Of a DNA stretch of 64,000 nucleotides, positions 52,750 through 63,744 are shown in pieces. The position numbers and the translations under genes were made by a program. Each line of letters starts with the position of its first letter. Positions within the stretch are counted from its first letter, which is position 1. The stretch is taken from contig NZ_CAKTVX010000008.1 in the NCBI RefSeq assembly GCF_934630525.1, forward strand, positions 27,442-91,441, written 5' to 3'. This DNA is from an uncultured Slackia sp. (lineage in GTDB: Bacteria > Actinomycetota > Coriobacteriia > Coriobacteriales > Eggerthellaceae). The notes under the pieces were generated by a model that saw only the letters and a program-made list of their open reading frames with translations, did not search any database and had not been told where the DNA came from.

Positions 52750-53424
52750 CTACAAGGCCCCATTGTCGCCTTTTTCGACTGCAGCAGCGTTTTTTACCTC
52801 TAAATCGGAAATCATGGCGCGTTTAAGCGCTTCTCGCACCTTTTTATCGGGAATCGCGGACAGCTCCTCGTCAATCTGGGCTATACGCGCCTCAGAAAGC
52901 GCCACACGCCGCGCTTTCTCTTGAGCGGCCGTTTTTTCGGCTTCTTCACGGTAAGGATGAGAGAGTTTGTACTTGCCGCGCGAGACACGGATGCGGAACT
53001 CGTCGATTTCTTCGCCGAACAGCTCAAGGAACTTCAACTTGATCATCTCGCGGCGCGCGTCGACCTCCGCCGCGATAAGGCTATCTTCCACATACACGAT
53101 GAGCTCGCCCGCGGGCGGCTTTCGACGAACGAACGCGCCACCTGCCGAACGGGGCGCGGAGGGCGACGTGCGCGAGGTTTCATTCCGTTCCGATGTTTCA
53201 CGTGAAACATCGGTTTCCTCTTCAGCCTTGCGAATGATGTAAATCGAATTCGTGTGGTCGAGAATTACTGCGGCGGCGGGGCCGGCGCACGCTTCAAGCG
53301 CCGACTTCCACATGCGCTTCACCTTTGCGGCGCGCGCCGCTTTAGCCGCAAGCACGTCCGAAGATGCCTGCCCACGCAAAGTCTTTTGGAGGGCCATGGA
53401 AAACGATTTCATGGAATTGCTCAT
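52750..53424 (-). CDS. DUF721/DciA-like protein in the conserved recF-gyrB position
   Basis: 224 aa from the ATG that overlaps the recF stop (ATGA). The position matches actinobacterial DUF721 (DciA). It contains a parS palindrome in frame (peptide DVSRETS). Confidence 0.6.
   Translation of the reverse strand: MSNSMKSFSMALQKTLRGQASSDVLAAKAARAAKVKRMWKSALEACAGPAAAVILDHTNSIYIIRKAEEETDVSRETSERNETSRTSPSAPRSAGGAFVRRKPPAGELIVYVEDSLIAAEVDARREMIKLKFLELFGEEIDEFRIRVSRGKYKLSHPYREEAEKTAAQEKARRVALSEARIAQIDEELSAIPDKKVREALKRAMISDLEVKNAAAVEKGDNGAL
53194..53209. promoter_or_regulatory. parS site 1 (TGTTTCACGTGAAACA), inside the DUF721/DciA-like CDS
   Basis: Perfect 16-bp palindrome matching the ParB-binding consensus tGTTNCACGTGAAACa. 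Confidence 0.85.
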
Positions 53425-54563
53425 GCGCGAACACCCGCCTTCGACAAATCGAGCACAGACGCGCGATCGACGATATCGTCTTCGAAACACGTCAAATCGG
53501 TAGCGGTCATGAACGTCTGGATATCTTCATGCAACAAATCAACGAGCGCGCCGCGGCGGCGGGCATCGAGTTCGCTCATCACGTCGTCGAGCAGCAGCAC
53601 AGGTTTTACGCCAAGCATCTTCTTCACCAATTCAACCTCGGCGATTTTCCACGCAAGCGCAATTGAGCGCTGTTGGCCCTGCGAAGCAAACGTGCGGGCG
53701 TTGCGCCCGTCGATGAAGAATTCCATATGGTCGGCGTGCGGGCCCACGACCGCACGGTGGCGCGCACGTTCCTCGAGGCGGCGCGAGAACATCGCATTCG
53801 CCGTTGCCTCAAGAACCTCGTCTTTCGACATTTCCACGTCGTATGGGCGGCTCTCGGCCAGCTCCGCCAAATCCTCCGAAAGCCACGAGGGAATGTACGA
53901 ATACGAGAGCTCCTCCGCGCCGTCGGTGATATCGCCATATACGCGAGCCATGCGGCCACACAGATTGCGGAACAGCGCGACGCGATACATATGGAGGCGA
54001 GCGGCTACGGGAATAAGAGCGTCGTTCACGCTGTCGATAAGCACATCGGTCGCTTCATCTTTCAGAAGCGCGTTCTTATTGCGCAGAAGCTTCTCGTAAT
54101 CGCGGCGAATAACGCGATGGTTCTTCGAAAGCTGGCTGCCAAGCAAATCGATTGCAGAACGCTTTGGCGTTTGAGAGCCCTTCGCAAGCTCAAGATCGTC
54201 GGGAGAGAACGCCACGGCGGGCAGAATTCCCTGCAAATCTTGCGCTGCGCGGCGTTTCCCATTGAGCGTGTACGACCTCGATGCCGGCTCAATCACCGTC
54301 GCAACGCTCAAGTCGCGCGAGTCGGATACAAATCGCGCTTCGAGGCGGGCAAATGGCGCACCCCACATAATGAGGTCGCGCCCGCGGGCCGAGCGAAACG
54401 ACCCATGGGCGCACAAAAGCTGGATTCCCTCGACGACGTTGCTTTTGCCCGTGGCATTAGGGCCCACGAAAATCGTGAGTCCGCCAATGTCGCCCAATGC
54501 GAGGCTTCGATAGTTGCGAAAACCTGCCAGGCGCACTTCCTGAATGCGAAGATCATTTGCCAC
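53421..54563 (-). CDS. recF: DNA replication/repair protein RecF
   Basis: GTG start 10 nt after AAGGA, just downstream of the dnaN stop. Walker A GPNATGKSN and the signature/Walker B LLLDDVMSELD are present. This gives 380 aa. Confidence 0.9.
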   Translation of the reverse strand: MANDLRIQEVRLAGFRNYRSLALGDIGGLTIFVGPNATGKSNVVEGIQLLCAHGSFRSARGRDLIMWGAPFARLEARFVSDSRDLSVATVIEPASRSYTLNGKRRAAQDLQGILPAVAFSPDDLELAKGSQTPKRSAIDLLGSQLSKNHRVIRRDYEKLLRNKNALLKDEATDVLIDSVNDALIPVAARLHMYRVALFRNLCGRMARVYGDITDGAEELSYSYIPSWLSEDLAELAESRPYDVEMSKDEVLEATANAMFSRRLEERARHRAVVGPHADHMEFFIDGRNARTFASQGQQRSIALAWKIAEVELVKKMLGVKPVLLLDDVMSELDARRRGALVDLLHEDIQTFMTATDLTCFEDDIVDRASVLDLSKAGVRA

Positions 54564-54576
54564 GGAGAGCACGTCC

Positions 54577-55674
54577 TTAAGATACGCGAACGGGCATAAC
54601 GAGATACAGGAAGTTCTCGCCTGCGCCCGCACGGAAAATGCCGGGCTTCATGGGCGACGTGGTCTCAAAGAACACCTGGTCGGTCGAAACGGACATAAGG
54701 CCGTCGAGCACGTACTGGTGGTTCAGGGCGATTTGGATGCTTTCGCCCGCAACCTCGCAGCCGACGATTTCCTCGGCCGAACCGACGTCCTGCGTGGCCG
54801 CGTTGATGATAGCGTTGCCCGCTTCGGCATTGATATCGATTTTCACAGGCGACGAGAGAGCGCTCACCAAGCCCACGCGCTTAACCGCGGTAATGAGCTC
54901 TTGCGTGGTGAAGCACGTCTTCGTTGCCCACGACTGCGGGATGATCTGACGATAGTTCGGGAAATTGCCCTCGATGCGGCGGTTGATGAGCACCATATTC
55001 TGATAGGTGAACACGATCTGGTTCGCCGTAAGGCCGATGGTGATGTTCTCTTCCATCTTCGGCAGACCGGCAACCTCTTGGAGGAACACGCCAGAAACAA
55101 TCGCCTCAAAATTCTCCTGAACGCCCTCAAGCGCGATATCGGCCACGGCAAGGCGATACGAGTCGGTCGCAACCATGCGCAAGCCTTCTTCGGACGTAGA
55201 AATAAGCACGCCCGTGAGCACTGCGCGGCTTTGGTCCTTCGAAACAACCTTCGCCACACGTTTCACCATAGAGCAGAATTGCGCGAACGGCACCTCGATG
55301 GAACTCGAAACGTCAACGTTGGGGAAAGGAGGAAAGTCTGCCGCGTCGAGCGTTTTGAGCGTGAACGACGATTTGCCGCACGATACCGTGACGGTCGAAT
55401 CGTTCGTTTGGAACTCAACGGCTGCCTCGGGAAGGTTCTTTACAATATCGAGAAGAAGCTTCTCGGGAATAACGGTTGTTCCCTCTTCTTCGACGAGCGC
55501 AGGAACGCTGTAACGAATAGAGCGTTCGAGGTCGGTGGTTTCCATAACCAACCCCATACCCTCTGCTTTAATGTAGACGCCAGAAAGCACAGGGATGGTA
55601 GAGCGCGAAGCTGTGCCCTTGGACACGATGGTCAATGCATTAAGGAGTTCGCTCTTGTTGATGTTGAATCTCAC
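54577..55674 (-). CDS. dnaN: DNA polymerase III beta sliding clamp
   Basis: 365 aa with a GTG start. The three-domain clamp sequence begins MRFNINKSELLNAL. Confidence 0.9.
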   Translation of the reverse strand: MRFNINKSELLNALTIVSKGTASRSTIPVLSGVYIKAEGMGLVMETTDLERSIRYSVPALVEEEGTTVIPEKLLLDIVKNLPEAAVEFQTNDSTVTVSCGKSSFTLKTLDAADFPPFPNVDVSSSIEVPFAQFCSMVKRVAKVVSKDQSRAVLTGVLISTSEEGLRMVATDSYRLAVADIALEGVQENFEAIVSGVFLQEVAGLPKMEENITIGLTANQIVFTYQNMVLINRRIEGNFPNYRQIIPQSWATKTCFTTQELITAVKRVGLVSALSSPVKIDINAEAGNAIINAATQDVGSAEEIVGCEVAGESIQIALNHQYVLDGLMSVSTDQVFFETTSPMKPGIFRAGAGENFLYLVMPVRVS

Positions 55675-55693
55675 TTTTTTGCCCTTCTGCTCT

Positions 55694-55850
55694 TAAGTAA
55701 ATAATTAATGATTGTAGTAGTAATAAGGACGGTGGAAAAGTGGAAAAGGTTGCATCATGCCTGTTCAATCATTGTTTTTGATGACTGAAGAATGTTTGAC
55801 AATCTGCATCTGCTTTCCACTGCTTTTATTGCTTATATTATCTTTCCACC
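55694..55850. other. oriC module in the dnaA-dnaN spacer: AT-rich stretch, DnaA-trio repeats, GC spacer and DnaA boxes
   Basis: The AT-rich stretch taagtaaataattaatgatt lies at 55694-55713. TAG TAG TAA TAA is at 55715-55726, then ggac. Tandem GTGGAAAAG boxes follow at 55732-55740 and 55740-55748. Two more boxes are cTTTCCAC (55813-55820) and cTTTCCACC (55842-55850). Confidence 0.65.
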
Positions 55851-55869
55851 GCTTTCCTCAAGTTTTCGA

Positions 55870-57477
55870 CTAGTTTTCCCGAATGTTTTTAATAATAATC
55901 TCGAGCTCTTCTTGAAGCTCTCGACTCTCTTTGGTCTTCTTCTCGATCTTCTCGACGGAGCTCATGATGGTCGAGTGATCGCGATTGAACCGCTTTCCGA
56001 TGTCGTTGTAAGGAATGTCGATCATCTGGCGGCACAAATAGATCGCTACGTGGCGCGCGTAAGCGATATTGCGCGATCGCTTCGTGCCAATGAGGTCGGC
56101 ATGGCTCACCTGGTAGTACTGCTCGACTTCGTGCTGCACGGCTTCGACGGTGATTTTCTTCAACGCGCCGGCTGAGAAGTGGTTCTCGAGCAGCGATTTT
56201 ACGTCGGAGAGCGTGATGTTGGGGTTTCCGAACGCGGTCATTTGCGAAATGACCTTCGTTACGGCGCTTTTGAGCTCACGCACGTTAGAGCTCGATATTT
56301 CGGCGATATACATTTGTATATCTTCGGGAACATATAAATCCCAGCTGCCCTCGGAGCGCTTGTATTCCTCGATGAACGACTTGATAATGCCGAGTTTCGT
56401 TTCAACCTCAGGCGGTTGAATGTCGTAGGTACCGCCCGAATTGAAGCGGCTCTTGTATCGTTCGTCGATATCGATGCTCTTCGGCGAACGGTCGGCCGAA
56501 AGCACGACTTGCTTGCCGGCGTCGGTGAGGCGGTTGAACAGCTGGAACACGATATTGACCGTGGCTGATTTACCCTGGAAATATTGCACGTCGTCGATGA
56601 GCAGCGCGTCAGCGTCGAGGTAGCGGCTCTGGAACGCCTGGAAGCTCGACTTGTCTTTGCTGTGGTCGATAGCGGCGATGGAATATTCCGTGATGAACTC
56701 CTGCGCGTCGATATACACCACACGCATATCGGGCCGCGTTTCCAGGATGTAGTTCTGGATAGCTCGCAGCAAGTGTGTCTTGCCCAAACCGCTTTTTCCG
56801 TAGATGAACAGGGGATTCAAGGTTGACTTGCCGGGCGATTCCGCTACCGATACGGCCATCGAATAGGCTAAACGGTTCGAGTCGCCGATGATGAAATTCT
56901 CGAAGGTAAGCGCGGCCGCTCCCGTGTCCATACCATTTGCGCGCGCGATTTGGCTGCCCGTGAGGTGGCTCGTTGTCGCGGGCTGCTGCGAGCTTTGCTG
57001 CGTTGCGGCGGCAGGCTGGACCTGCGGCGCGACCTGGGGTTGGGGCTGAATCGACTGTGCGGTTGGTGCTGCGGGTTCGGAATGTGCGGGCGCGATGGGC
57101 GCGGCACCCGTCTGTGCTCCCGCCGCCTGAGGGACTGCCGTCGGTTGCGCGGCTGGCATGTGGGCCGGCGCTTGCTGGGCATTGTGCGTGGCGATTTGCT
57201 GCATGAATGCCGAAGAACCCGGGTCAACCTCGATTTCTACTACATATTCGGTTTCGAACAAATCGCGCAACGCCTGCTCGATTTGCGAAAGAAAACGCTT
57301 TTCAATTTGGCCTTTAATGAAGTCGGTATCGACGGTGGCGAGCAGGAAGCCCACGCTCGACGCCTGCGGCTGCATGCGCCCTAAAAACGCATCGACCTGC
57401 GCTGAGTTCACCGTGCCATACGATTTGACCTTTTCGATAACGGCTTGCCAAGTTTCATAGGGGTTGTTTGGATCCAT
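55870..57477 (-). CDS. dnaA: Chromosomal replication initiator protein DnaA
   Basis: 535 aa with a Gln/Pro/Ala-rich linker, AAA+ Walker A GKSGLGKTHL, and C-terminal DNA-binding helices (RNIAYARHVAIYLCR, DHSTIMSS). Confidence 0.95.
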   Translation of the reverse strand: MDPNNPYETWQAVIEKVKSYGTVNSAQVDAFLGRMQPQASSVGFLLATVDTDFIKGQIEKRFLSQIEQALRDLFETEYVVEIEVDPGSSAFMQQIATHNAQQAPAHMPAAQPTAVPQAAGAQTGAAPIAPAHSEPAAPTAQSIQPQPQVAPQVQPAAATQQSSQQPATTSHLTGSQIARANGMDTGAAALTFENFIIGDSNRLAYSMAVSVAESPGKSTLNPLFIYGKSGLGKTHLLRAIQNYILETRPDMRVVYIDAQEFITEYSIAAIDHSKDKSSFQAFQSRYLDADALLIDDVQYFQGKSATVNIVFQLFNRLTDAGKQVVLSADRSPKSIDIDERYKSRFNSGGTYDIQPPEVETKLGIIKSFIEEYKRSEGSWDLYVPEDIQMYIAEISSSNVRELKSAVTKVISQMTAFGNPNITLSDVKSLLENHFSAGALKKITVEAVQHEVEQYYQVSHADLIGTKRSRNIAYARHVAIYLCRQMIDIPYNDIGKRFNRDHSTIMSSVEKIEKKTKESRELQEELEIIIKNIREN

Positions 57478-57566
57478 ATTTATTCAAGCCGCCTTCCCTC
57501 CGTAGATGGTATCGAAATTATAGCGGCCAATCCTCCAATTGTGGTGTCTTCAGCGGGGTGTGGAAA

Positions 57567-58373
57567 TTAAAACAACGCGTCGATGACGCGCAGGCCCTCG
57601 TCGGTGACCTGTCGCATTTTTCCGACGGTGGAAATGAGGCCTGCTTCCTCGAGCTTTTTGAGCGCGCGATGGGCGCTGCTCGCCGCAAGGCCAAGCTCTT
57701 CGACGATGTCGGTCACGCGCAGCGTTGGCTGGTCCAGGAACAAATAAAGCACGTCTTTCTCGCGGTCGGAAAGTGCGGGCACCATTTGTTTGCGCTGTTC
57801 ACGTGTGGGCGCGCCCTTCGGCGCGTCGAAATCTTCCTCGGGTTTCACGCTGATGGTAACCACGGAGCCGCATTTGATGTTGTCCTCGATCGTGATGCGA
57901 CCGTGCGAGAACGAAAGGTATTCCTTTACCAGGGGCAATCCGCTGCCAACGCCGCGGATGTAGCGCTTCATGTCGCTTGTGGCCGACGAAAAGCCAGGCA
58001 TTTGCGCCTTTTCCTTTTGGGGAATGCCGGGGCCTTGGTCGGTGAAGCGAATCGTGTTGCCCTTATCGAAAATCGAAACCACGATTTCCTTGAATTGGGC
58101 ATGGATGAAGTTCTCGCTGACTTCGCGAATCGCGGTATAGGGAATGCTGCCGCCGGCCTGTTGGGCCTGGGTGTAGATAGTGGAGGCAAGATTCTCGATG
58201 AACTCCGCCGTGGTGGTGGGAGCTATTTCAGTCACGCGTGGCGCGCTTCGGAAGTCGTCATAGCAAGCGATTCGTGCGCTCGCGATAGCGCGAGAGTAAT
58301 CCTCGTTGACTCCAGATGCGGGCTCGGGTGCGTTTTGTGCTGTGTTTAGTGTAGGTTCCAACGCTTTTCCCAA
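57567..58373 (-). CDS. GHKL (HATPase_c-like) ATPase fused to a C-terminal winged helix-turn-helix domain; function unknown
   Basis: 268-codon ORF with a TTG start and a weak RBS, so the start is uncertain. Bergerat-fold motifs are an N-box (EVSENFIHAQ), G1 (DQGPGIP) and G2 (GVGSGLPLV). The C-terminal HTH is LRVTDIVEELGLAASSAHRALKKLEEAGLIS. There is no His-phosphotransfer domain and no TM segment. Confidence 0.7.
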   Translation of the reverse strand: MGKALEPTLNTAQNAPEPASGVNEDYSRAIASARIACYDDFRSAPRVTEIAPTTTAEFIENLASTIYTQAQQAGGSIPYTAIREVSENFIHAQFKEIVVSIFDKGNTIRFTDQGPGIPQKEKAQMPGFSSATSDMKRYIRGVGSGLPLVKEYLSFSHGRITIEDNIKCGSVVTISVKPEEDFDAPKGAPTREQRKQMVPALSDREKDVLYLFLDQPTLRVTDIVEELGLAASSAHRALKKLEEAGLISTVGKMRQVTDEGLRVIDALF

Positions 58374-58384
58374 GTTATTCCAGG

Positions 58385-59014
58385 TTTTCCGCTAATTTTC
58401 ACTCGCTTGGAAAATTGTAAAAACTTTTTCACGAATGAGTTCCACCATTCTAGAGGTGGAAAGTCATGTTTTTCAAGACTCTTTCCACTCATGGTGGAAA
58501 TTTCCATAGCCAACAACCTCATGTTTTCCGAGTTTTCCACTTTTTATTCAAGGAATGTGGAAAACGGTGGAAATGATTGGAAACCAATGCGGAAAACCTT
58601 GAAAAACAGCTTGACTTACTGGAAAACAAGGGGGAGAGAATGGAAAAACGCGACGTTTTGTACGCTTTCCTGAAAAGTCCAGAGCAAGTTTCGAATTTAT
58701 GCTGGAAAAATTGGCTGAAACATTGAAAAGCCCAGGTCATAGTAGCTTTTTGAGATTTCTGCAAAGCGGTTTCCTCGGTGCTGGAAAACATTTTTCCAAA
58801 GTGTGTTTCACGGTTTTCCGCGTAGTTTTCCACCGGAAAAACCGCGTAATGCCTGGGTTTTCCTCATTTTCCACATTTTTAGACAGTGAATAAGCTTAGT
58901 TTTCCACAATAGGGTGCATTTAACCCTCGATTACGCGGTGGAAAGAGCCGGAATCGCGCTTCGGTGGTTTTCCGCGGTTGGAAAACTCCTTGCTTTCCGT
59001 TCGTTTTTTCCACT
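58385..59014. other. oriC DnaA-box array (dense cluster of TTTTCCACA-type motifs)
   Basis: Perfect TTTTCCACA occurs at 58556-58564 (minus), 58867-58875 and 58900-58908. TTTTCCAC[C/T] occurs at 58533-58541, 58826-58834 and 59006-59014. I counted about 12 TTCCAC cores and more than 25 TTTCC[A/G]-type motifs by eye in about 640 bp. GC is low, and the long ORFs called here are low-complexity artefacts. Confidence 0.8.
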
Positions 59015-59145
59015 CGTGAAGAATTCGTCGTGAATTGAAACCTATATATAGTGTTGAAAACACAAGCGAGCCTACTAGTAGCGGTTTTTCGCGTGAAAGC
59101 GCCGATTTCTTTCGAAAATGCTTTATGAACTGCGTGAAAAGGGGG

Positions 59146-59173
59146 TTTACATCCGATTTCGCTACGTTATACT
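59146..59173 (+). promoter_or_regulatory. Putative rpmH promoter
   Basis: -35 TTTACA, 16-nt spacer, -10 TATACT, about 55 nt upstream of the rpmH ATG. Confidence 0.45.
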
Positions 59174-59227
59174 TGTACGGCTATTCATTGAGAAACACAT
59201 GCTGCAATAACGTGAAAGGGAGTCGAA

Positions 59228-59362
59228 ATGAAGCGCACCTATCAGCCGAATAACCGCAAGCGCGCCAAGACCCACGGTTTCCGCGCACGCATGGCGACCA
59301 AGGGCGGCCGTGCCGTTCTCGCTCGTCGTCGCGCCAAGGGCCGCAAGCGTCTGACCGTGTAA
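59228..59362 (+). CDS. rpmH: 50S ribosomal protein L34
   Basis: 44 aa: [44 protein letters not shown]. It is below the ORF-track length cutoff. The RBS is GAAAGGGAG. Confidence 0.95.
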
Positions 59363-59379
59363 AAACCTCGGAGGTCGGC

Positions 59380-59733
59380 GTGAAATCGACAATTAGGTCG
59401 AGCGCCGACGTTTCGCGGCTTTTTTCGCAGGGAAAACGCTTCAGCACGCCGTTCGCAACGGTGCTTGTGCTGAAGAGAACTGAGCAACACGACCATGATT
59501 TGCATGGTCGTGTTGCTTTTATAGCGGGAAAAAAGCTCGGCAACGCCGTTTGGCGCAATGCCGCGAAACGCCGGCTCCGTGCAATCGTGTGCGATCTTGG
59601 GGGCCCGTGGGAGGGTTGGGACGTCGTAATTTCGGCACGCTCCACCATTCTGAAGGCTTCTTATAGTAAAGTGAGCCACGCATGCGAAAAGGCCCTTGAA
59701 AAGGCCGGTTTAATCAATCCTGCTTCGCGATAA
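59380..59733 (+). CDS. rnpA: Ribonuclease P protein component
   Basis: 117 aa with a GTG start after GGAGG. The basic RNR-like region ([17 protein letters not shown]) and the position after rpmH support the call. Confidence 0.85.
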
Positions 59734-62638: not shown

Positions 62639-62706
62639 TCCTTCATCTTCGCTCTACATTGGCTATAAGCCTCGCATATACACGCAGTATCAATGAAGGA
62701 GGACGC

Positions 62707-63744
62707 GTGGGACTGTTTGATGGTTTGAAGAACCAGAGTCGTAAGCCTAAGAATCAGGAAGGCAACGCCGTCGAAAGCGAACAGGTCGGCTACAACCCTG
62801 AGAATGCTCCGGTTATCGAGCGCGACCCAAATGTTTCACGTGAAACATCCGTCGTTTCTTCCACCCAAGATGACCTTCAGGCTGATGCATATACGAATGA
62901 ACCCGCTCCTTCTGAGGCGGTATACACCGCAACCCCGCTCCGCTCGTATGCGGAAAAGAAACCCGTGAGGCACGTCGTGGGCACCACGAAGGTTATCGCG
63001 ATTCTTAACCAGAAGGGTGGCGTCGGTAAATCCACGACGACCATCAACCTTGGTGCGGCATTGGGCGCCATGGGGAAACAGGTGCTGCTTATCGACCTCG
63101 ATCCGCAAGGCAATACCTCGAGCGGCTTGGGCATCGAAAAGAACCTTTTGAATGAATGCATTTACGATGTGCTCATTAGCGACACCCAGCTTACCGACAT
63201 CATCATTCCCGATGTGTGCGAAGGCCTCGATGTTGCTCCCGCGACCATCAACCTTGCAGGTGCCGAAGTCGAGCTCGTTTCCGAAATGGCTCGCGAAGGA
63301 CGCCTGAAGGAAGCGATTGGCCATGTGCGCGGCAAATACGATTACATTTTCATCGACTGCCCGCCTTCGCTCGGCCTGCTTACGGTGAATGCGCTTGTTG
63401 CTGCCGATAAGCTGCTCATTCCTATCCAATGCGAGTTCTATGCGTTGGAAGGCGTGACGAAGCTGCTAGATTCAATGAAACGCGTGAAGAGCCTTCTGAA
63501 TCCCGGTTTGGAAATCTACGGCGTGCTGCTCACGATGTATGACGGACGCACCACGCTTTCGAAGCAGGTTGCTGCTGAGGTGCGTAATTTCTTCGGTCGC
63601 ACGGTTTTCGACACGGTGATTCCCCGTACAGTTAAAATCTCTGAAGCGCCGAGTTTCGGCCAACCGATTAACGAATACGACCCGACTGGTAAAGGCGCGG
63701 AAGCGTACTGCGCCCTTGCAAGAGAGGTGAGCCAGCGTGGCTAA
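62707..63744 (+). CDS. parA: ParA/Soj chromosome-partitioning ATPase (with a long N-terminal extension if this start is correct)
   Basis: The deviant Walker A NQKGGVGKSTT lies at about aa 100. I propose the GTG start after AAGGAGGA, but the true start could be further downstream, near 62950. Confidence 0.85.
   Translation: MGLFDGLKNQSRKPKNQEGNAVESEQVGYNPENAPVIERDPNVSRETSVVSSTQDDLQADAYTNEPAPSEAVYTATPLRSYAEKKPVRHVVGTTKVIAILNQKGGVGKSTTTINLGAALGAMGKQVLLIDLDPQGNTSSGLGIEKNLLNECIYDVLISDTQLTDIIIPDVCEGLDVAPATINLAGAEVELVSEMAREGRLKEAIGHVRGKYDYIFIDCPPSLGLLTVNALVAADKLLIPIQCEFYALEGVTKLLDSMKRVKSLLNPGLEIYGVLLTMYDGRTTLSKQVAAEVRNFFGRTVFDTVIPRTVKISEAPSFGQPINEYDPTGKGAEAYCALAREVSQRG
62832..62847. promoter_or_regulatory. 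parS site 3 (TGTTTCACGTGAAACA), in the parA 5' region
   Basis: Perfect 16-bp palindrome. It reads NVSRETS in the parA frame. Confidence 0.85.

Follow-up and report, generated by a model that had tools for sequence, protein, structure and literature searches.

The window, meaning the whole 64-kb stretch of Slackia DNA analysed here, which resembles Slackia isoflavoniconvertens, has the gene order parA, gidB, jag, yidC, yidD, rnpA, rpmH, DnaA-box array, X, dnaA, dnaN, recF, a 246-aa ORF, gyrB, and gyrA (Table 1). The gene that we call X has a TTG start in the ORF list and encodes 268 residues, in agreement with the original prediction of a 268-codon reading frame on the dnaA strand. However, RefSeq prefers the second TTG (58361) as start, resulting in a protein of 264 residues (WP_183907135.1, "ATP-binding protein"). 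Because the TAA stop codon of X is located at 57567-57569 and the ATG of dnaA at 57477, the gap between the two genes comprises 89 nucleotides, which is also the distance that had been predicted. An Rfam scan of 55500-59400 gave no RNA match.

Table 1. Features of the X-dnaA region in window coordinates
Feature	Position	Strand	Evidence
rpmH, divergent from X, at the other edge of the box array	59228..59362	+	ORF list, synteny
GC-poor array upstream of X with about 20 DnaA boxes of the TTTTCC(A/G) type, present in both orientations	58385..59014		Motif counts, GC, conservation
Inverted DnaA-box pair, 15 bp apart, around the conserved core TGAATAAAAAG	58533..58564		Cross-locus comparison
Promoter-like element for X (predicted), TTGAAA-18-TAGAAT, with DnaA box TTTCCAC in the spacer	58447..58476	-	Promoter scan, conservation
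Gene X, GHKL ATPase-winged helix protein	57567..58373	-	ORF list, Pfam, homologues at 54-99% identity, RefSeq
GHKL/HATPase_c domain of X, residues ~30-178	57840..58286	-	AF2 model, Foldseek, invariant residues
C-terminal winged helix-turn-helix of X, residues 200-268	57570..57776	-	Pfam, profile matches, Foldseek MarR matches
3' end of X and X-dnaA spacer: weak terminator-like hairpin (57591..57575), DnaA box ATTTCCACA (57567..57559), TATAAT (57522..57517)	57478..57591	-	Motif and promoter scan
dnaA, 535 aa, long P/Q/A-rich domain II	55870..57477	-	Pfam Bac_DnaA and Bac_DnaA_C
Downstream half of oriC, two further DnaA boxes (~55813-55850) and basal-unwinding-system signature	55690..55850	-	Motif scan, conservation

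DnaA boxes, promoters, and the unwinding element

The motif TTTTCC/GGAAAA is found 20 times in 58374-59227 compared to 68 times in the entire window, which corresponds to a 22-fold enrichment. TTTTCCAC is present in 11 copies in the window versus 1.85 expected, a number not reached by any shuffle, and six of these copies are located in the upstream array and two in the dnaA-dnaN spacer. The GC content drops to 39-47% over 58300-59200, and an AT-richer spacer of 0.6-1.15 kb precedes X in all loci measured. In a footprint comparison of four Slackia species the array boxes appear as invariant blocks. Thus, box enrichment, GC dip, and footprinting agree with the DnaA-box array that had been proposed upstream of X. 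The promoter of X, which had been expected inside this array, is indeed predicted there as a conserved sigma-70-like element, whose pattern CTTG(A/G)AAA-N17-TA(G/T)AAT is kept in Slackia and in other Eggerthellaceae loci.

K-mer and footprint analysis of the array yielded mainly the DnaA-box variants TTTTCCACA and TTTTCAACA, and an operator specific for X was not identified by this analysis. The sole non-box element is TGAATAAAAAG, which occurs once in the window. In Slackia and Raoultibacter, both the element and its spacing are maintained at a distance of about 170-195 nt from X on the upstream side, and in two other Eggerthellaceae loci (L019 and L024) it is found farther upstream, at 253-356 nt, while the flanking boxes vary. 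The box pair with this core is a candidate for a third-factor site, and all other strongly conserved elements of the array can be explained by DnaA itself.

A basal unwinding system consists of tandem DnaA boxes, a short GC spacer, at least three DnaA-trios (3'-NAT-5'), and an AT-rich region (PMC8287927). Such a signature is found downstream of dnaA and comprises tandem boxes at 55747..55732, CGTCC, the trios TTA TTA CTA CTA CAA TCA (55726..55709), and subsequent AT-rich DNA. Judged by sequence, 55747..55690 together with the separate upstream box cluster has the features described for bipartite origins with a basal unwinding system (PMC8287927). A single (YTA)x4 is present in the 64 kb, and a second run of DnaA-trios, which we searched for in the upstream array, was not found. 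In most of the class the unwinding element is likewise conserved on the downstream side of dnaA, and in no case was it located upstream of X. With the unwinding site in the dnaA-dnaN spacer the origin would thus be bipartite, with X and dnaA, together about 2.6 kb, embedded between its two halves. The prediction that X lies inside the replication origin therefore holds in the bipartite sense, but the DnaA-trio element is found downstream of dnaA and not in the upstream array. The arrangement resembles the bipartite oriC of Bacillus subtilis (incA/B - dnaA - incC), in which a box cluster precedes dnaA, and tandem boxes, GC spacer, trios, and AT-rich DNA follow it. In contrast to B. subtilis, which to our knowledge does not have any protein-coding gene between the upstream box cluster and dnaA, gene X is located at this position in the window.

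The gap between X and dnaA contains the TATAAT that had been put forward as an internal promoter element for dnaA, and a TATAAT-like -10 element recurs in the gap of several relatives. Given this separate -10 element and the weak hairpin in the gap, X and dnaA may be expressed independently in Slackia. In two loci (L028 and L114), the X stop codon is only 2-3 nt away from the dnaA ATG, the Shine-Dalgarno sequence is inside X, and X is predicted to be translationally coupled to dnaA in this sublineage. The suggestion that X is the first gene of the dnaA transcription unit is thus clear for one sublineage, but less so for Slackia, where dnaA has retained a conserved -10 element of its own.

Domain composition of X and its relation to known protein families

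X is a soluble protein built from a GHKL domain, a disordered linker, and a winged helix. HATPase_c (PF02518) matches residues 79-178 above the gathering cutoff (E 1e-10), and this family is matched by 114/114 members of the X family. The AF2 model computed from the 114 sequences has a pLDDT of 88.8; it replaced a first model from 21 sequences, which had a pLDDT of 66 and a disordered lid. In Foldseek searches with the AF2 model many CA domains of histidine kinases were found (E 1e-6 to 1e-4) in addition to 3LMM, and sequence searches against the PDB, single-sequence as well as profile-based, gave only weak matches to CA domains, MutL, and winged helices. The key residues of the ATP site are E84, N88, D112-G114-G116, and G141-G143-G145, of which E84 is kept in 90% or more of the 114 sequences and all others are invariant. 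In an alignment to the window's own GyrB, for which the hhalign probability is only 10%, E84, N88, and D112 correspond to the catalytic Glu, the Mg-binding Asn, and the adenine-binding Asp. The match to the N-terminal domain of MutL in the profile search is weak (E 0.012), and position +3 of motif I is a His and not an Asp. Residues 1-24 are variable and disordered, the GHKL domain begins about 25 residues into the protein, and the GHKL core including the ATP lid has a mean identity of 66% and a minimum of 46%. X belongs to the GHKL/Bergerat-fold ATPase superfamily, and its ATP-binding domain is complete and probably catalytically competent. The motifs EVSENFIHAQ, DQGPGIP, and GVGSGLPLV, on which the proposal of a complete Bergerat fold had been based, are all present in the translation, and the HATPase_c match and the AF2 fold, which corresponds to CA domains, are in accordance with this proposal.

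At the C-terminus, residues 200-250 are matched by HTH_IclR, MarR_2, HTH_24, and HTH_5 with E-values of 1e-8 to 1e-6 (HTH_IclR 1e-8, MarR_2 3e-8, HTH_5 7e-7). Lrp/AsnC and MntR domains were found with PDB profiles and MarR and OhrR structures with Foldseek, so that the MarR/ArsR-like winged helix expected at the end of X is supported by three types of search. However, only the core of about 70 residues matches, and X has neither the N- and C-terminal helices of MarR nor the effector domain of IclR, which distinguishes it from MarR/IclR/ArsR regulators. The winged helix is the least conserved folded part of X (mean identity 40%), and this low conservation would fit poorly with a single conserved operator. 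The disordered linker between ATPase and winged helix is variable, rich in A, P, and Q, and ranges from 8 to 313 residues across the family, being short in the X of the window.

The CA domains of histidine kinases (HK853, CpxA, EnvZ, PhoQ) are the nearest sequence relatives of X outside the family, with about 30% identity, and the G1 (DxGxG) and G2 (GxGxGL) motifs and the lid of X are similar to those of histidine kinases. Unlike these, X does not contain a HisKA/DHp domain, a phospho-acceptor His, a sensor, or a transmembrane segment, is fused to a DNA-binding domain, and has a Glu at N-4 in motif I, which is the spacing of GyrB and MutL. The lack of dimerisation, sensor, and transmembrane parts had been noted before, and HisKA-type families are absent among the Pfam matches listed for X and the 114 members, as are sensor families among those listed for X. 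In addition, the AF2 model does not contain a helical hairpin, residues 30-178 corresponding to a CA domain alone, and X was thus rejected as a two-component sensor kinase. A gene for a cognate response regulator was not found beside X in the loci examined.

The spacing of motif I including the catalytic Glu, at the hhalign probability of 10% given above, and the long flexible linker are reminiscent of ATP-dimerising GHKL clamps like MORC and MutL. Loaded at sites in the array, such a clamp could connect the two origin halves by bridging or looping, or could contribute to origin positioning or segregation, and the bipartite layout with about 2.6 kb between the halves would be in agreement with this. 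However, X differs from the GHL ATPases (GyrB, MutL, Hsp90, MORC) in that it does not have an S5-fold transducer (ribosomal S5 domain 2-like) or a conserved N-terminal strap, the linker following directly after the GHKL domain, and its fold is nearer to the CA domains of histidine kinases than to MutL or GyrB. Furthermore, parA is encoded nearby (62659-63744) and parA and parB are found beside related loci, so that segregation may already be covered. We consider a function as origin organiser very unlikely.

The SpoIIAB/RsbW anti-sigma Ser kinases also consist of a GHKL domain of about 150 residues without DHp, and the E-x-x-x-N-x-x-H motif of X resembles that of anti-sigma kinases, which we take as a lead only. 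It could be imagined that X is a kinase or partner switch of this type, in which the winged helix only tethers the protein at the origin and the GHKL domain acts on DnaA or a different replication protein by phosphorylation or sequestration, thereby controlling the activity of the initiator and not transcription. This would be in accordance with the stand-alone CA-type domain, with DnaA as obligatory neighbour, with the ATP lid, whose extreme conservation suggests a conserved protein partner, and with the COG-based JGI name "anti-sigma regulatory factor (Ser/Thr protein kinase)" given to X members. However, X carries a winged helix, HATPase_c_2 (PF13581) is absent among the Pfam matches listed for X and the 114 members, and SpoIIAB or RsbW structures are not among the top 50 Foldseek matches. 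Neither a STAS nor a sigma-factor gene is found at the locus, and a candidate phospho-acceptor was not identified. A kinase-type function seems doubtful to us.

The best structural match of X is 3LMM (DIP2311 of Corynebacterium diphtheriae), an AlbA_2 protein that corresponds to X through its C-terminal HATPase_c_4-winged helix module. The top Foldseek matches are the 3lmm chains A-D (E 2e-8 to 3e-7), with alignments of 258-271 columns spanning the GHKL-like domain and the winged helix, but TM-scores of only 0.42-0.45. The original prediction had named the C-terminal half of AlbA_2/HATPase_c_4 regulators as an example of a widespread, scattered family to which X should not belong, and this caveat applies in part. 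The likeness is present at the fold level, with the ATP-binding domain followed by the winged helix in both proteins, but does not extend to membership at the sequence level. X does not have the N-terminal AlbA_2 domain of the 3LMM type, and HATPase_c_4 (PF13749) and AlbA_2 are absent both from the Pfam matches of X at E<=1 (best 25 of 29) and from those most frequent among the 114 members (best 25 of 83). We know of no report of 3LMM-type genes linked to dnaA. For X, no NCBIfam family scored above cutoff, and PADLOC only matched the winged helix as Csa3/CasR-like and no GHKL protein of a defence system.

The X family and its linkage to dnaA

The X family is discrete and comprises about 361 clusters at 50% identity with E<=1e-30, and 1568 with E<=1e-3, in a search of 1.84 billion representatives. 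All named members belong to the Coriobacteriia, namely to the Eggerthellaceae and the Atopobiaceae, which are families in different orders; all compared loci were gathered via X, and Collinsella and the Coriobacteriaceae sensu stricto were never among the named matches. The database labels are only "ATP-binding protein" or "histidine kinase". Some annotations of X have been mis-extended into the box array and are called "membrane protein".

X is located immediately upstream of dnaA and on the same strand in 98/98 testable loci of Eggerthellaceae and Atopobiaceae, which include 24/24 genome loci, 8/8 look-ups of divergent members (L025, L028-L032, L113, L114), and 66/66 testable metagenome loci. 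The adjacency is also retained where local inversions have moved rpmH and dnaN away from dnaA. For example, in Raoultibacter-type loci the flanks are rearranged, yet array, X, dnaA, and unwinding element remain one block. X copies at other loci were not found, paralogues are not present among the fetched loci, which have a single copy each per genome locus, and the plasmid and phage collections do not contain family members. Thus, two findings that would have spoken against a role at the origin, absence of the gene from this position in relatives and a family scattered at random loci, were not obtained. For the locus L016, the identity is 54% for X compared to 47% for DnaA, and 45% each for DnaN and RecF. 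X is thus as conserved between genera as DnaA, DnaN, and RecF, which points to purifying selection.

Nevertheless, synteny alone cannot separate a role in replication from a mere benefit of co-expression with dnaA. X could be an ordinary ATP- or ligand-responsive transcription regulator with a regulon apart from replication, which has been kept next to dnaA as a fixed ancestral insertion or because origin-proximal, growth-rate-coupled expression is useful. X has the domain make-up of a one-component regulator, the closest structure, 3LMM, comes from a broad class of putative regulators, and the Slackia dnaA has its own -10 element. However, such a regulator would not be expected to stay adjacent to dnaA across two named families and through local inversions, to be present in single copy, to be translationally coupled to dnaA in a sublineage, or to have DnaA boxes within its promoter. 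We regard this explanation as unlikely.

Possible role of X in replication initiation

Taken together, the observation behind the original prediction was confirmed and its interpretation is partly supported. In X we see a strong candidate for a so far undescribed replication regulator of the Coriobacteriia. Our leading, still tentative reading, to which we give slightly less than an even chance, is that X serves the dnaA/oriC module as an accessory factor specific to Coriobacteriia and acts as an ATP-gated, transcription-factor-like regulator of initiation. DnaA would control the expression of X via the DnaA boxes within and next to the promoter of X, and the winged helix of X would bind, probably as dimer, to the upstream box array or the dnaA promoter region. 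ATP binding or hydrolysis by the GHKL domain could then switch the DNA-bound state of X or its contact to DnaA, and this switch would tune dnaA transcription, the assembly of DnaA oligomers at the origin, or both. A more far-reaching possibility, which we consider rather improbable, is that X represents a new class of initiation factor, a GHKL ATPase whose winged helix targets the origin, and an obligatory partner of DnaA in Coriobacteriia, which through ATP binding or hydrolysis remodels or licenses DnaA oligomers or bridges the origin halves. In this case a second nucleotide switch would govern initiation alongside DnaA-ATP.

As an accessory regulator, X would be comparable to Spo0A, CtrA, MtrA, HP1021, AdpA, IciA/ArgP, and SeqA, which are lineage-specific proteins modulating initiation at origin or dnaA-promoter DNA, and also to the regulators directed at DnaA itself, YabA, SirA, Soj, Hda, and DiaA/HobA. 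Homology to YabA, SirA, Soj/ParA, Hda, DiaA, HobA, SeqA, DnaD-like proteins, or CtrA/MtrA/HP1021 was not found among the listed Pfam, NCBIfam, and PADLOC matches. A description of the X family was also not found in the literature on dnaA/oriC in Coriobacteriia or Eggerthella, on GHKL proteins with DnaA, and on HATPase_c_4/AlbA_2, so that, as had been supposed, a match to a described DnaA or oriC regulator was not found. We know of no such regulator that contains a GHKL ATPase or whose gene invariably adjoins dnaA within a bipartite origin.

Regulators of replication initiation are lineage-specific and known for only a minority of phyla. As far as we know, none has been described for the Coriobacteriia, a class with gut bacteria of medical relevance, among them Eggerthella, Slackia, and Olsenella. 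Because X is as conserved as dnaA, is never separated from it, is linked to DnaA boxes, and unites an ATP switch and a DNA-binding domain in one protein, it is a concrete and testable candidate, and genetic tools are now at hand for Eggerthella lenta. For annotation, the labels "histidine kinase" and "ATP-binding protein" are open to correction, and for origin prediction the unwinding site of Coriobacteriia is to be expected in the dnaA-dnaN spacer. Should DnaA or oriC prove to be the target of X, we would know of no earlier GHKL-type ATPase in the control of initiation, and X would show that a bipartite origin can accommodate an additional gene.

Conserved linkage of X and dnaA

The window is close to Slackia isoflavoniconvertens (99% protein identity to the matching locus, L002). 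X, the 268-residue GHKL ATPase and winged-helix protein, is encoded on the same strand as dnaA, dnaN and recF, and about 850 bp of low-GC non-coding DNA separate it from rpmH, which is followed on the plus strand by rnpA, yidD, yidC, jag, gidB and parA. The TAA stop of X (57567-57569) lies 89 nt from the dnaA ATG (57477); the open reading frame, this spacing and the ATP-site motifs of the original prediction were all borne out in the window sequence and its translation. RefSeq starts the protein (WP_183907135.1, 'ATP-binding protein') four codons further in, at TTG 58361, which gives 264 residues. Downstream of recF, a 246-residue ORF without Pfam or NCBIfam match precedes gyrB and gyrA. In other Actinobacteria the slot between recF and gyrB is occupied by DUF721/DciA (Rv0004), and the ORF could be a divergent helicase-operator homologue. 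The parA/soj ORF is listed with 361 residues and its ParA domain starts at about residue 110, pointing to either an internal true start or an N-terminal extension.

Features of the X-dnaA region and its surroundings, in window coordinates
Feature	Position	Strand	Basis or remark
246-aa ORF	52750-53490	-
recF	53421-54632	-	ORF list/family matches
dnaN	54577-55674	-	ORF list/family matches
BUS signature, dnaA-dnaN spacer	55690-55850	-	two tandem TTTTCCAC boxes 55747..55732, CGTCC, TTA TTA CTA CTA CAA TCA, AT-rich run
dnaA	55870-57477	-	ORF list/family matches
DnaA domain II linker	56900-57200		dnaA codons ~95-190
-10-like TATAAT, X-dnaA gap	57522..57517	-	TATAAT-like -10 recurs in several relatives' gaps
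DnaA box, X-dnaA gap	57567..57559	-
X	57567-58373	-	ORF list
Weak hairpin and short T-run	57591..57575	-	over X 3' end
Invariant 23-nt block	58374-58396	-	ahead of X TTG start
X promoter, sigma-70-like, TTGAAA-18-TAGAAT	58476..58447	-	promoter scan; ~75-100 nt upstream of X
TGAATAAAAAG core	58550..58540		single copy in window
rpmH	59228-59362	+	ORF list
parA/soj ORF	62659-63744	+

The decisive comparative result is the synteny. In 24 of 24 genome loci (Slackia, Raoultibacter and Eggerthellaceae MAGs), X is the gene immediately ahead of dnaA and has the same orientation. So it is in all eight of the most divergent members reachable (L025, L028, L029, L030, L031, L032, L113, L114) and in all 66 metagenome loci that extend far enough downstream for the test. 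All of these loci were found through X, and in each of them X has its place beside dnaA. The divergent upstream neighbour is rpmH in 54 of the 62 testable metagenome loci. The order is rearranged in Raoultibacter (L015, L018) and five metagenome loci (L087, L090, L105, L108, L112), where dnaN-recF are found upstream, on the other strand, rpmH follows dnaA, and X and dnaA are still adjacent. In Raoultibacter the basal unwinding system (BUS) stays beside dnaA, now facing rpmH, and the DnaA-box array stays beside X. Therefore, the inverted block comprises array, X, dnaA and BUS in this order, and it is intact in the rearranged loci. In one divergent sublineage (L028, 6683-6686; L114, 4195-4199) the X stop is only 2-3 nt from the dnaA ATG and the Shine-Dalgarno sequence lies within the 3' end of X. 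A check of the ORF that follows X identified it as DnaA, and the X proteins have 455-560 residues with very long P/Q/G/Y-rich linkers. At least for this sublineage, the arrangement implies an X-dnaA operon with translational coupling. That X is a generic regulator merely hitch-hiking beside dnaA is improbable, given an adjacency that outlives rearrangements and the coupling of the two genes. Between genera, X is conserved to the same degree as the surrounding replication proteins (identities for L016: X 54%, DnaA 47%, DnaN 45%, RecF 45%, YidC 56%).

Architecture and family of X

Pfam places HATPase_c at residues 79-178 (E 1e-10). For residues 200-250 it lists winged-helix families of a generic kind (HTH_IclR, MarR_2, HTH_24, HTH_5), and it lists nothing beyond these; NCBIfam gives only sub-threshold likeness to sensor-kinase CA parts and small wHTH regulators. 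A first AlphaFold model, built from 21 sequences, was poor (pLDDT 66), and a second, from 114 diverse family members, was confident (pLDDT 88.8, pTM 0.67). The latter has a disordered N-terminus (1-24), a complete alpha/beta GHKL domain (about 30-178) with two N-terminal strands and a helix ahead of the Pfam match. Behind the GHKL domain, residues 179-199 make up a disordered linker and residues 200-268 a winged helix of three helices. The top Foldseek match in the PDB is 3LMM, DIP2311 of C. diphtheriae (four chains, E 2e-8 to 3e-7, about 260-270 columns covering both domains), followed by many histidine-kinase CA domains (CpxA, EnvZ chimera, HK853, PhoQ, WalK; E 1e-6 to 1e-4). MarR-type winged helices were among the matches of the first Foldseek search. 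By sequence alone, PDB matches are weak (KinB and HK853 CA domains, MutL N-terminus, Lrp/AsnC and MntR wHTH domains). Pfam, model and Foldseek thus agree with the domain reading predicted originally, an ATP-binding fold with a winged helix and no kinase dimerisation part. X belongs to the GHKL superfamily and has a MarR/IclR-like winged helix, and at the fold level it is most like the HATPase_c_4-wHTH part of 3LMM. By sequence, the Pfam matches listed place it in neither HATPase_c_2 nor HATPase_c_4. With no DHp domain, no phospho-acceptor His and no response-regulator partner, X is not a histidine kinase.

N88, H91, A92, D112, G114, G116, G141, G143 and G145 are invariant in the 114 sequences, and R83, E84 and E87 are kept in at least 90% of them. 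A profile alignment to the window GyrB has a low overall probability and a clear motif register, in which E84, N88 and D112 correspond to the catalytic Glu, the Mg-binding Asn and the adenine-binding Asp. Therefore, the ATP site of X is intact. The general-base Glu is present in X; classical histidine-kinase N-boxes usually lack it. X is under strong purifying selection. The GHKL core including the ATP lid has a mean identity of 66% to the window protein (minimum 46%), compared to 40% (minimum 22%) for the looser winged helix, and this difference hints at a conserved protein partner. A partner of this kind leaves room for another explanation, which we consider unlikely: X would act on DnaA as a kinase or partner-switch like SpoIIAB. 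An origin-bridging GHKL clamp is very unlikely; transducer and strap, elements that true GHL ATPases have, are absent from X. The linker is A/P/Q-rich and varies from 8 to 313 residues across the family. A similar composition is seen in domain II of DnaA, a long linker of low complexity that is P/Q/A-rich and has a local GC of 68-71%.

A first homologue search gave 2784 matches, of which the few named ones ('histidine kinase', 'Predicted transcriptional regulator', 'ATP-binding protein') came from Slackia and Arabiibacter. Divergent-member seeds added Olsenella, Tractidigestivibacter, 'Atopobiaceae bacterium', 'Coriobacteriales bacterium' and 'Coriobacteriia bacterium'. Because Collinsella and Coriobacteriaceae sensu stricto are not among the named matches, universality in the class is not claimed. 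A profile of the family, run against 1.84 billion cluster representatives, matched only 361 clusters at E<=1e-30, 509 at E<=1e-10 and 1568 at E<=1e-3. HATPase_c is so common a domain that these few clusters mark X as a discrete family. It is not a widespread family scattered over random loci, and the plasmid and phage collections searched contain no member. JGI labels some members 'ArsR family regulator/anti-sigma regulatory factor (Ser/Thr protein kinase)'. The gene calls of two relatives (P0216, P0375) run upstream through the DnaA-box array, and the resulting F/H-rich N-terminus, named 'uncharacterized membrane protein' by JGI, is an annotation artefact.

Origin DNA and expression signals

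The upstream array is real: the region 58374-59227 contains 20 TTTTCC cores (22-fold enrichment), and eight of the 11 copies of TTTTCCAC in the window (1.85 expected) lie in the two spacers flanking X-dnaA. Its GC content is 39-47%, and in every locus measured X has an AT-richer spacer of 0.6-1.15 kb in front of it. In an alignment of four Slackia species most of the invariant blocks, for example GTGGAAAATGAGGAAAACCCAGGCA and GTGGAAAACTACGCGGAAAAC, combine DnaA boxes with weaker GGAAAAC sites. The element in the dnaA-dnaN spacer, with two further boxes upstream and triplets whose complement is 3'-AAT AAT GAT GAT-5', reads as the published BUS signature, in which two boxes are followed by some 4 bp of GC spacer and by DnaA-trios with central A (PMC8287927). 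The dnaA-dnaN spacer has the only run of at least four YTA triplets in the 64 kb. Across the class, most of the fetched loci keep the element behind dnaA, and none has it upstream of X. Most likely, the origin unwinds at this element. On these features the origin is bipartite, like that of B. subtilis, with X and dnaA embedded in it and X obligatorily linked to dnaA. The position of X within the origin, as originally predicted, thus holds in the bipartite sense only, the unwinding element being in the dnaA-dnaN spacer and not in the array.

The X promoter was expected within the array, and a sigma-70-like element is indeed found there. Its form, CTTG(A/G)AAA-N17-TA(G/T)AAT, is common to Slackia species, and similar elements exist in other genera. 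Several species, the window included, have a DnaA box within the promoter spacer, and therefore DnaA likely regulates X. The TATAAT proposed as a separate dnaA -10 is present, and Slackia dnaA probably has its own promoter besides read-through from X; X as first gene of the dnaA unit fits the L028/L114 sublineage and needs this qualification in Slackia. The 23-nt block TTATCGGAAAACCTGGAATAAC(T) is invariant in the four Slackia species, the rest of the X upstream spacer differing at 27% of aligned columns on average. It contains no obvious Shine-Dalgarno sequence and may have a control function, either in translation or dependent on DnaA. The core TGAATAAAAAG sits within an inverted DnaA-box pair exactly 15 bp apart (58533-58564). 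Slackia and Raoultibacter have this arrangement about 170-195 nt ahead of X; in two other Eggerthellaceae loci (L019, L024) the distance is 253-356 nt. The boxes on either side vary (TT[A/T]TC[C/A]AC), core and spacing are kept, and the element may be a site for a third factor, either X or a nucleoid protein.

A possible role in initiation

X would be expressed under DnaA control, its winged helix would bind DNA in the array or the dnaA-promoter region, and ATP binding or hydrolysis by the GHKL domain would change its DNA-bound state or its contact to DnaA, whereby X would tune dnaA expression and/or DnaA assembly. This scheme as a whole is tentative, if the likeliest of the explanations considered. 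As anticipated, X has no homology to described DnaA/oriC regulators, and the literature searched contains no description of the family. By its proposed function, lineage-specific origin-binding transcription factors and DnaA-binding regulators are the nearest concept. As a candidate origin or dnaA regulator, X has survived both comparative tests, its place in relatives and the discreteness of its family, and the case is strengthened by synteny. X may represent a lineage-specific initiation regulator in which known domains are combined in a new way and placed in a new context.
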